Below are positions 1-38,725 of a DNA stretch of 38,725 bases, one piece after another. Numbering within the stretch: the first letter of the stretch is position 1; each line of letters opens with the position of its first letter. This DNA comes from a phage. The DNA lies in the sequence record PZ502562.2; one strand, 5' to 3'. Under the pieces are notes generated by a model. The model was given only the letters and a program-made list of their open reading frames with translations, searched no databases and was not told the DNA's origin. Both the position numbers and the translations under genes were made by a program.

Positions 1-160
1 CTCACAGTGTAAGCGCCAAAAGTTCCCCCATAGGGGTCCCCAAAGTCACTCCAAAGGAGTGCCGGACCTTGAGGTGGCCTTGAGGTGGGGCCTGAGGTGG
101 ACCGAGGAGGGTCCTAAGGTTACCGTGGGGAGTGTCTCTTCTTGTCCCTATCTGTTCATC
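1..160. repeat. Left genome end; probable direct terminal repeat region (about 160 bp in T7)
   Basis: Window starts CTCACAGTGTA, the T7-group left-end sequence, and ends ...ATCTGAGTGACTAT, which in T7 immediately precedes the right terminal repeat. The right copy is outside the window, so the length is assumed from T7. Confidence 0.35.
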
Positions 161-162
161 CT

Positions 163-296
163 CCTAAAGTCCCTCCTAAAGTCATTCCTACCGTCTACAG
201 CCTAAAGACTACACCTAAAGACCCACCGAGTCAATCCCTATCTTAAAGACCATCCTAAAGACCATCCTAAAGCTGCCTTGTTGTTACCTATAAAGA
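163..296. repeat. Array of CCTAAAG-type heptamer repeats near the left end
   Basis: CCTAAAG or close variants at 163, 175, 201, 214, 242, 254, 266 and about 288; T7 has an equivalent array next to the terminal repeat. Confidence 0.6.
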
Positions 297-35497: not shown

Positions 35498-35767
35498 ATG
35501 GAAAAAGATAAGAGCCTCATTACGTTCTTAGAGATGTTGGACACTGCGATGGCTCAGCGTATGCTTGCGGACCTTTCGGACCCTGAGCGCCGTTCTCCGC
35601 AACTATACAACGCCATCAACAAACTGTTAGACCGCCACAAGTTCCAGATTGGTAAGTTGCAGCCGGATGTTCACATCTTGGGTGGCCTTGCTGGTGCTCT
35701 TGAAGAGTACAAAGAGAAAGTCGGAGATAACGGTCTTACTGATGACGATATTTACACTTTACAGTGA
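35498..35767 (+). CDS. 18: Terminase small subunit (DNA maturation protein A)
   Basis: 89 aa, collinear with T7 gp18. Confidence 0.95.
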   Translation: MEKDKSLITFLEMLDTAMAQRMLADLSDPERRSPQLYNAINKLLDRHKFQIGKLQPDVHILGGLAGALEEYKEKVGDNGLTDDDIYTLQ

Positions 35768-35861: not shown

Positions 35862-36305
35862 ATGCTGGAATTTTTACGTAAGCTGGTACCTTGGGTTCTC
35901 GCTGGGATGCTATTCGGATGGGGATGGCAACTTGGGGCGGACTCAATGGACGCCAAGTGGAAACAGGAGGTACAGAATGAGTACGTTAAGAGAGTTGAGG
36001 CTACAGCGAGCACTCAAAGAGCACTCAATGAAATATCGGCTAAGTATCAAGAAGACCTTGCCGCGCTGGAAGGGAGCACTGATAGGATTATTTCTGATTT
36101 GCGTAGCGACAATAAGCGGCTGCACGTCAGAGTCAAAACTACCGGAACCTCCGATGGTAAGTGTGGATTCGAGCCTGATGGTAGAGCCGAACTTGACGAG
36201 CGAGATGCTAAAAGTATTCTCGCAGTGACCCAAAGAGGTGACGCGTGGATTCGCGCTCTACAGGATACCATACGCGAGCTACAGCATAAGCAGGAGGTTA
36301 AGTAA
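35862..36305 (+). CDS. 18.5: i-spanin (Rz-like)
   Basis: 147 aa, N-terminal TM segment [15 protein letters not shown], collinear with T7 gp18.5. Confidence 0.93.
35977..36228 (+). CDS. 18.7: o-spanin (Rz1-like lipoprotein) embedded in the +1 frame of gene 18.5
   Basis: 83 aa from ATG 35977 ([71 protein letters not shown]...); lipobox [10 protein letters not shown]. Confidence 0.85.
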   Translation: MSTLRELRLQRALKEHSMKYRLSIKKTLPRWKGALIGLFLICVATISGCTSESKLPEPPMVSVDSSLMVEPNLTSEMLKVFSQ

Positions 36306-38077
36306 TGAGTAAAGGTACATCCGCTCAGTCCAATCGTAATGCGCTCGTTGTGGCGCAACTAAAGGGTGACTTCGTGGCGTTCCTGTTCGTCTTATGGAAG
36401 GCGTTAAACCTACCAGTGCCCACTAAGTGTCAAATTGATATGGCTAAGGTACTGGCGAATGGGGACAACAAGAAGTTCATCTTACAGGCTTTCCGTGGTA
36501 TCGGTAAGTCGTTCATCACTTGTGCGTTCGTTGTGTGGTCCTTATGGAGAGACCCTCAGTTGAAGATACTTATCGTATCGGCCTCTAAGGAACGTGCAGA
36601 CGCTAACTCCATCTTCATCAAGAACATCATTGACCTGCTGCCGTTTCTCAGTGAGTTGAAGCCGAGACCCGGACAGCGTGACTCTGTGATTAGCTTTGAT
36701 GTTGGTCCTGCTAGTCCTGACCACTCTCCTAGTGTGAAGTCAGTGGGTATCACTGGTCAGTTAACAGGTAGCCGTGCTGACATTATCATTGCGGATGACG
36801 TTGAGATTCCGTCTAACAGTGCGACTATGGGTGCCCGTGAGAAGCTATGGACTCTCGTTCAGGAGTTCGCTGCGTTGCTTAAACCACTACCAACTTCTCG
36901 TGTTATCTACCTTGGTACACCACAAACTGAGATGACTCTCTATAAGGAACTTGAAGATAACCGTGGGTACACCACTATCATCTGGCCTGCTCTGTACCCA
37001 AGGACACACGAAGAGAACCTTTACTACTCTCAGCGTCTGGCACCAATGCTCCGTGCGGAGTACGAGGAGAATCCTGAGGCACTCGCTGGGACTCCAACAG
37101 ACCCTGTGCGATTCGACCGTGATGACCTCCGTGAACGTGAGTTGGAATACGGCAAGGCGGGCTTTACGCTACAGTTCATGCTTAACCCGAACCTTAGTGA
37201 TGCCGAGAAGTACCCTCTGAGGCTCCGTGACGCTATCGTAGCGGCCTTAGACTTAGAGAAGGCACCAATGCATTACCAGTGGCTTCCGAACCGTCAGAAC
37301 ACCATTGAGGACCTTCCTAACGTGGGTCTTAAGGGTGATGACCTGCACACATACCATGAGTGCTCGAATAACTCTGGTCAGTATCAACAGAAGATTCTGG
37401 TCATTGACCCAAGTGGTCGCGGTAAGGATGAAACAGGTTACGCGGTACTGTACACTCTAAACGGTTACATCTACCTAATGGAAGCTGGTGGTTTCCGTGA
37501 TGGCTACTCAGATAAGACCCTTGAGTTGCTCGCTAAGAAAGCTAAGCAATGGGGAGTCCAGACGGTTGTCTACGAGAGTAACTTCGGTGACGGTATGTTT
37601 GGTAAGGTGTTCAGCCCTATCCTTCTTAAACACCACAACTGCGCTATGGAAGAGATTCGTGCTCGTGGTATGAAGGAGATGCGTATTTGTGATACCCTTG
37701 AGCCAGTCATGCAGACTCACCGCCTTGTCATTCGAGATGAGGTCATTAGGGCCGACTATCAGTCAGCTCGCGACATAGACGGTAAGCATGACGTTAAGTA
37801 TTCACTGTTCTATCAGATGACTCGTATCACTCGTGAGAAAGGCGCTCTGGCACACGATGACCGATTGGATGCCCTTGCGTTAGGCGTTGAGTATCTCCGT
37901 GAGTCCATGCAGTTGGATTCCGTTAAGGTAGAGGGTGAGGTACTTTCAGACTTCCTTGAGGAACACATGATGCGTCCTACGGTGGCTGCAACACACATCA
38001 TTGAGATGTCCGTTGGCGGTATTGATGTGTACTCTGAGGACGATGAGGGATACGGTACGTCTTTCATTGAGTGGTGA
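36305..38077 (+). CDS. 19: Terminase large subunit (DNA maturation protein B)
   Basis: 590 aa; Walker A-like FRGIGKSF; collinear with T7 gp19. Confidence 0.98.
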
Positions 38078-38158: not shown

Positions 38159-38181
38159 TAATACGACTCACTATAGGGAGA
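38159..38181 (+). promoter_or_regulatory. T7-RNAP promoter phiOR
   Basis: TAATACGACTCACTATAGGGAGA, exact consensus, +1 G at 38176. Confidence 0.9.
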
Positions 38182-38485: not shown

Positions 38486-38567
38486 GGTCTTCCTGACCGA
38501 CTGACGGCTCACCGAGGGATTCAGCGGTATGATTGCATCACACCACTTCATCCCTATAGAGTCAAGT

Positions 38568-38676
38568 CCTAAGGTATACCCGTAAAGAGCCTCTAATGGT
38601 CTATCCTAAGGTCTATACCTAAAGATAGGCCATCCTATCAGTGTCACCTAAAGAGTTGCTTATAGAGGGCCTAAGG
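38568..38676. repeat. Right-end array of CCTAAAG/CCTAAGG heptamer repeats
   Basis: CCTAAGG or CCTAAAG at 38568, 38605, 38618, 38647 and 38670; mirrors the left-end array at 163-296. Confidence 0.55.
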
Positions 38677-38725
38677 AGTCCCTAGAGGGTCCTTTAAAAT
38701 ATACCATAAAAATCTGAGTGACTAT

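Follow-up and report, generated by a model that had tools for sequence, protein, structure and literature searches.

A six-unit short-repeat array in the terminal repeat of a T7-like phage and its possible part in DNA packaging

Short, evenly spaced repeats in the genome-end repeats of T7-like phages have been known in kind since T7 was sequenced. The locus considered here raises the question of whether an exact tandem 11-mer in such a terminal repeat (TR) has a function of its own, or whether it is a by-product of the events that make and delete repeat units. The stretch of DNA that was analysed, hereafter called the window, comprises 38,725 nucleotides. It is around 92% identical at the nucleotide level to Shigella phage ESh6 and coliphage CICC 80001 across 96% of its first 25 kb, and T7 shares approximately 91% nucleotide identity with it across 94%, again with the first 25 kb compared. 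Judged by these identities, the window is that of a T7-like phage belonging to Teseptimavirus.

The terminal repeat and the array within it

The window ends with ...GAGTGACTAT and starts with CTCACAGTGTA, and in T7, ESh6 and AH67C600_Q5 (Q5 in the following) the sequence across the junction reads ...GACTATCTCACAGTGTA; the window assembly therefore carries one copy of the TR, which was opened at TR base 2. TRs were extracted as the sequence from TCTCACAG through ...TGTCCCT. For the annotated phages T7 and 13a, this rule yields 160 bp and 170 bp, respectively, which equal the annotated TR lengths, and for the window it yields 150 bp, namely base 38725 plus positions 1-149. The left terminus TCTCACAGTGTA, made up of base 38725 and positions 1-11, matches that of T7, 13a, ESh6 and others, and the right boundary TGTCCCT is found at positions 143-149, where ATCTGTT follows directly at 150-156. 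The initial annotation had placed the repeats inside a presumed TR, and this placement is borne out by homology, since the extraction rule reproduces the TRs of T7 and 13a. Both the location of the 11-mers within the TR and a TR length of 150 bp are thus supported by comparison with annotated relatives, and the virion genome should be longer than the assembly by about 150 bp, that is, around 38,875 bp. Such a comparison of TRs also helps to fix the TR boundaries in an assembly that contains a single copy.

Two tandem 11-mers at 67-77 and 78-88 and a related unit at 91-100 had been reported in the initial annotation, which is confirmed by direct reading and by Tandem Repeats Finder. The latter describes positions 67-100 as a repeat with a period of 11, 3.0 copies, 83% matches and a score of 45; a separate repeat search recovered the same three copies with identities of 100, 100 and 82%. 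Units 2 and 3 are separated by GG at positions 89-90. Besides the pair at 67-88, the 38,725 bases contain no other exact tandem 11-mer pair, and when the window was simulated 300 times with a first-order Markov model, just 1% of the simulations produced any exact pair of this kind, which argues that the tandem did not arise by chance. For units of 11 or 12 bases, exact tandem repetition is confined in the whole window to the 11-mer at position 67 and 12-mers at positions 160 and 244-249, all of which are located within the first 280 bases.

The tandem 11-mers are the opening units of an array of approximately 66 bp, which consists of six units with a period of about 11.4 bp (Table 1). Within the region 63-135, self-similarity shows peaks at lags 11, 12 and 23 (z 2.8, 2.2 and 3.3, respectively). 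The units, which belong to the CCTTGAGG type, are rich in G on the top strand. Together they take up the right-hand portion of the TR, bounded by the palindrome at 47-61 on one side and by the conserved stretch with TR end and pause site (133-156) on the other; the last base of the array is found 17 bp before the TR end and the concatemer junction (CJ).

Table 1. Positions of the terminal repeat, the array units and the neighbouring elements in the window.
Feature	Positions	Strand	Remarks
First base of the TR (T)	38725	+	Assembly closed on itself, starts at TR base 2
Remainder of the direct TR	1-149	+	150 bp in total, by homology; left TCTCACAGTGTA and right TGTCCCT conserved
Palindrome CCCCCATAGGGG	25-36		Conserved in T7-type and window-type TRs
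Perfect palindrome CACTCC-AAA-GGAGTG	47-61		5 nt upstream of unit 1
Unit 1, CCTTGAGGTGG	67-77	+	Most conserved unit
Unit 2, CCTTGAGGTGG	78-88	+	Exact copy of unit 1
Unit 3, CCTGAGGTGG	91-100	+	Equals CCTTGAGGTGG minus one T
Unit 4, ACCGAGGAGG	101-110	+	Degenerate
Unit 5, (G)TCCTAAGGTT	112-121	+	Degenerate
Unit 6, ACCGTGGGGAG	122-132	+	Degenerate
Conserved TR end, TGTCTCTTCTTGTCCCT	133-149	+	133-156 96% identical to T7 and 13a; array 66-76%
ATCTGTT, CJ pause signal for phage RNA polymerase	150-156	+	Directly after the TR; invariant in the alignment
SRL-type array, C-rich CCTAAAG units	160-275	+	Orientation of the array, spacing 12-14 bp; homologous SRL annotated in T7.1 at 175-338
Consensus T7 promoter at the phiOR position, TAATACGACTCACTATAGGGAGA	38159-38181	+	Direct reading
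SRR-type CCTAAGG/CCTAAAG units	38553-38700	+	Upstream of the TR in the concatemer

Related terminal repeats and the turnover of units

The comparison comprised 38 distinct TRs of the Studiervirinae, which were taken from IMG/VR and GenBank phage records; WX1 and WX2 were added later. Four groups of TRs were distinguished. The window-type group contains the window, ESh6, AH67C600_Q5, HZP2 and EG1 as well as WX1 and WX2, and these are the only six other deposited phages in which a TR of this type was found. The T7-type group consists of 8 TRs, the Klebsiella K11/przondovirus-type group of 21 and the T3/Berlin-type group of 4. Comparison of the TRs of related phages, which had been proposed as a check on the repeat, revealed a short-repeat array in all four groups: self-similarity within the right part of the TR peaks at lags 11-12 and 22-24 in each of them, across the 38 distinct TRs. 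De novo motif discovery by expectation maximisation, performed group by group, returned the related units GcCtTgAgGTGG (window-type), ccCCTTgGGg, nACctTAgGT and aCcTaaaGTga. Per TR, three groups average 2.2-2.8 occurrences of the pattern CCT[TA]{1,2}[AG]{1,2}GG and the T3/Berlin group 0.5, compared to 0.02-0.04 in shuffled sequences. A homologous array likewise occupies this position of the TR in 13a and in Klebsiella K11-type and T3-type phages. The initial annotation knew of no such repeats in the TR of T7. This holds for the exact tandem, which is absent from T7, but not for the array as such: an alignment of 13 TRs, read together with the T7 sequence, places a degenerate array, CCTTGAGGGTT, CCCTAAGGGTT ... 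CCCTTGGGTTTG, TCTTTGGGTGTTA, CCTTGAGTG, at the homologous position of the T7 TR.

When the motif starts are counted from the TR end, they fall onto a lattice of 11.4-11.6 bp, which has the same phase in the window-type (R 0.84) and the K11-type TRs (R 0.91). Positions of about -36, -59, -70, -82 and -93 are common to these two groups, whose TRs do not align with each other. T7-type TRs fit less well (R 0.44), and those of the T3/Berlin group show no such lattice. Because the members of a group are related to one another and the motif was picked after inspection of the data, phasing relative to the cut site is suggestive only. In K11-type TRs, the stretch from the CCTT..GG units to the TR end contains a second repeat, GATACTATATGTTG, in two copies spaced by around 34 bp (for instance, in L049 at TR positions of approximately 110-165); this repeat is absent from the window.

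The core of unit 1, CCTTGAGG (67-74), is invariant in all seven window-type TRs, and its counterparts are ACCTTGAGGGTT in T7 and ACCTTAGGTGG in K11-type TRs. The exact 22-mer formed by units 1 and 2 is common to the window, ESh6, WX1 and WX2. Unit 2 reads CCTTAAAGTGG in Q5, ACTTAAAGTGG in HZP2 and CCTTGAGGATGG in EG1, and unit 3 is found in five of the seven window-type TRs; in WX1 and WX2, the alignment has a gap of 11 columns, roughly one unit, in its place. Similar differences can be found among the T7-type TRs, where L018 carries an exact tandem 13-mer, of which L028 has a single copy, and where 13a exceeds T7 by one unit. Owing to such unit-sized gaps, the TRs of a single genus measure between 144 and 174 bp. 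Identity to T7 amounts to 85% over the first 46 bases of the TR, drops to its lowest values of 66-71% in the array and reaches 96% in the TR end plus CJ. Since whole units come and go among close relatives, replication slippage that duplicates or homogenises units offers the best explanation for units 1 and 2 being exactly alike. The alignments thus indicate that units turn over by slippage-like gain, loss and homogenisation, and that the motif core, the orientation and the period persist.

Searches of IMG/VR with the 22-mer of the exact tandem returned no match, and the invariant 19-mer, which spans palindrome and unit 1 sequence, was found there only in HZP2 and EG1. All nine metagenome matches are unrelated sequences of high GC content and were dismissed as due to chance.

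The surroundings of the concatemer junction

The SRL-type and SRR-type repeats, which lie on either side of the TR in the concatemer, resemble the array in orientation and spacing. Within 550 bp around the junction, the motif CCT[AT][AG][AG]G is enriched by a factor of 23; the top strand has 15 matches and the bottom strand four, and CCTAAAG is found eight times on the top strand of this region and never on the bottom strand. The spacings of the junction short repeats are 11, 13, 12, 12, 14, 13 and 12. The array is the lineage-specific form of a field of short CCTNNNG repeats in one orientation, which comprises SRR, TR and SRL around the concatemer junction of the T7 group, and we place high confidence in the anatomy of the array and in its assignment to the T7-group short-repeat family. 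The TR units and the SRL/SRR CCTAAAG repeats of T7, of which TR and SRL are annotated in T7.1, occupy the same place and share the orientation, the spacing of 11-14 bp and the CCTNNNG core; however, the window units are G-rich (CCTTGAGGTGG instead of CCTAAAG or CCTTGAGGGTT), and two of them are exact tandem copies. The repeat is an ordinary, partly homogenised, lineage-specific case of a long-known short-repeat architecture and no new kind of element.

The SRL-type array of the window itself contains exact tandem 12-mers, CCTCCTAAAGTC at 160-183 (2 copies) and ATCCTAAAGACC at 240-272 (2.8 copies). At the equivalent place, Q5 has at least five copies of CATACCTAAAGAC, and copy number therefore varies in the SRL-type array, too. 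In the deposited records of ESh6 (L001, 420-1142) and WX2 (L137, 423-545), coding sequences for 'hypothetical proteins' and one 'receptor binding protein kinase' have been annotated over the non-coding SRR/TR/SRL region; these are probably artefacts of gene calling.

The motif ATCTGTT, which follows the TR, carries the annotation CJ in the records of 13a and Yersinia phage Y, and the latter record describes it as a lysozyme-dependent RNA polymerase signal involved in DNA packaging. Compared with this class II pause/termination signal of T7, which is a separate 7-bp element directly downstream of the array, the repeats lie outside the signal and are far less conserved. Transcripts that start at the promoter in the phiOR position would be expected, from the biology of T7, to run through the TR to the pause site (PMC3276506). 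The promoter at the phiOR position (38159-38181) matches the T7 consensus exactly; that at the phiOL position (334-356) is a variant, TAATTCGACTCACTATAAGGGGA.

The palindrome that precedes the array is likewise a recurring element. At the position equivalent to 47-61, 34 of 39 TRs have a stem of 5 bp or more that encloses a loop of 3 nt, and in these 34 TRs the stem is perfectly paired and always located just before unit 1. The stem sequences vary by group and include CACTCC, GTCAACC, TAAACC, CACCC and CCACC. This pattern suggests that the palindrome is a selected hairpin or cruciform, in which the loop flips as a result of template switching. The loop reads AAA in the window and is exactly inverted, to TTT, in all six relatives that carry a window-type TR, and the loops of T7-type and K11-type TRs also occur in both orientations, as ..CC-TTC-GG.. 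or ..CC-GAA-GG... The C-run of the other palindrome, at 25-36, varies between 5 and 11 C among relatives, with the maximum of 11 in L015.

Packaging, drift and other accounts of the array

Packaging of the concatemer is expected to start at the right end and to run from right to left. The packaging sequences of T7 and T3 were reportedly mapped by Hashimoto and Fujisawa in 1992 and by Chung and Hinkle in 1990. An involvement of the array in this process could be reflected in the terminase proteins; however, co-variation between repeats and terminase was not found, and gp18 and gp19 are near-identical whatever the TR type. The gp18 protein of the window (35498-35767) is 94-100% and gp19 (36305-38077) 96-98.5% identical to Teseptimavirus homologues of either TR type. 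In L018, the bearer of a T7-type array, gp18 is even 100% identical to that of the window, and gp19 is 98% identical to its homologues in phages with T7-type arrays. As near-identical terminases are thus combined with different arrays, the exact 11-mer does not determine packaging specificity. The sequence turns over fast, units are gained and lost, and the terminase does not vary along with them, which shows that the exact sequence of the 11-mer is not critical. A role of some kind is nevertheless favoured, as the array lies close to the cut and the pause site, has all units in one orientation, is conserved in its phasing and retains its motif from genus to genus.

The most likely function, proposed tentatively, is that of an architectural packaging pad of low specificity. 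The array would then provide a repeated, helically phased surface on which the packaging complex lands or around which the DNA is wrapped: gp18 and gp19 would assemble on it together with the RNA polymerase paused at ATCTGTT, and this assembly would adjoin the cut that makes the right end of the genome. In such an arrangement, the motif core, the orientation and the phasing of the units would count, and the exact 11-mer would not. That gp18 is the DNA-interacting component of the terminase has been described (PMC2366019). A packaging role is further supported by the fact that the array abuts the annotated CJ packaging signal; against it stands that, in comparison to T7, no part of the TR is less conserved than the array and that nothing co-evolves with it. 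The combined account of anatomy, origin by slippage and architectural function is the best explanation overall, although as a whole it falls a little short of being probable.

Known packaging systems offer a partial parallel. In the cosB site of phage lambda, the R sites bound by gpNu1 lie next to cosN, and pacL and pacR of SPP1 contain sites for the small terminase; there, short motifs are repeated beside the terminase cut on the DNA that is packaged first, and the array of the window would be a loose analogue, above all of cosB. In contrast to cosB and pac, the units of the window are candidate sites only, change quickly and show no co-variation with gp18 or gp19. Maturation in the T7 group additionally depends on TR duplication and on a paused RNA polymerase, both of which cos and pac systems do without, and its mechanism has been called less understood (PMC13595956). 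It is rather unlikely, but worth considering, that the conserved module of palindrome, phased CCTT..GG array in one orientation, TR end and ATCTGTT is the long-sought site which the packaging complex of the T7 group recognises and on which it assembles, and that this module is read through motif core and helical phase instead of the exact sequence. If this were true, it would explain how near-identical terminases can serve divergent TRs. Irrespective of its function, comparison among relatives turns a lone tandem repeat into a defined module found throughout the Studiervirinae, which consists of palindrome, phased array, TR end and pause site and could be of use when minimal packaging signals of T7 are designed for phagemids.

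Nearly as likely as a packaging pad is a neutral origin of the array. For concatemers to be formed and resolved, the TR needs to be identical at both genome ends, and if only its extreme ends and the pause site are constrained, slippage could make and delete units in between, leaving the 11-mers without a function of their own. Drift would account for the array evolving faster than any other part of the TR, for the recurrence of unit-sized indels and new exact duplications, for the variable TR length within one genus and for the same terminase in phages with different arrays. Slippage-generated minisatellites (VNTRs) likewise show gain and loss of whole units between close relatives as well as fresh exact duplications; compared to these, however, the copy number of the array is small, with two to three exact or near-exact units, and it would be unusual for a neutral repeat that the motif core and phasing are kept across genera. 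Drift does not predict that core, orientation and a period of 11-12 bp are retained in genera whose TRs cannot be aligned, that unit 1 directly follows the palindrome everywhere, or that two groups have the same lattice phase relative to the TR end. It has also been considered that the array acts during transcription: the G-rich non-template strand could stabilise an R-loop or slow down T7 RNA polymerase coming from the promoter at the phiOR position, thereby helping the pause or exposing a strand for the nick and strand-displacement synthesis by which the TR is duplicated. GC skew on the RNA-like strand amounts to +0.44 in the array (67-132) and changes its sign on both sides, to -0.19 in the left 60 bases of the TR and -0.52 in SRL; all units have one orientation, and a consensus phage promoter upstream and a pause site directly downstream are in place. 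However, T7-type arrays are mainly T-rich and have a weak skew of G versus C (+0.04 to +0.15), and the class II pause needs only its own short signal. A transcription-coupled role is therefore regarded as possible but weak, and its probability as low.

The idea that the repeat encodes something is effectively refuted, whether this be a small protein, a G-quadruplex or a structured element of RNA or single-stranded DNA. Units 1 and 2 could pair in RNA through G-U pairs, but a search against Rfam gave no match at E values of up to 1, and folding of either strand was no better than that of shuffled sequences (z 0.0, +0.8 and -1.4); a structured element was rejected on these grounds. Despite the many GG runs, a G-quadruplex motif, defined as four runs of at least three G with loops of up to 7 nt (or up to 12 nt), is absent from the window, and it was detected in one of 38 TRs with loops of up to 7 nt and in five of 38 with loops of up to 12 nt. 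The motif is hence not conserved, and this candidate was discarded as well. The sole open reading frame is a mechanical one of 48 amino acids with a GTG start, which covers positions 59-205; its frame is broken by the 11-nt unit and, among relatives, by indels that are not multiples of three, which rules out coding.

Several known signals were compared with the repeat by eye and rejected. GAGGTGG differs from the Chi-like sequence GCTGGTGG at three positions, and T7-type units do not contain GGTGG. The primase site GGGTC is found once on the top strand, and neither strand nor position is conserved. GAGGTGG also resembles a Shine-Dalgarno sequence, but no start codon is suitably spaced and the region is non-coding.

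The large protein of the terminase pair in the window, gp19, differs slightly in length from most of its homologues. It consists of 590 amino acids and carries a 4-residue extension at its N-terminus, and BLAST matches to T7 and most other loci span 586 of the 590 residues, while matches over the full length of 590 residues were obtained for HZ2R8, EG1 and L018.
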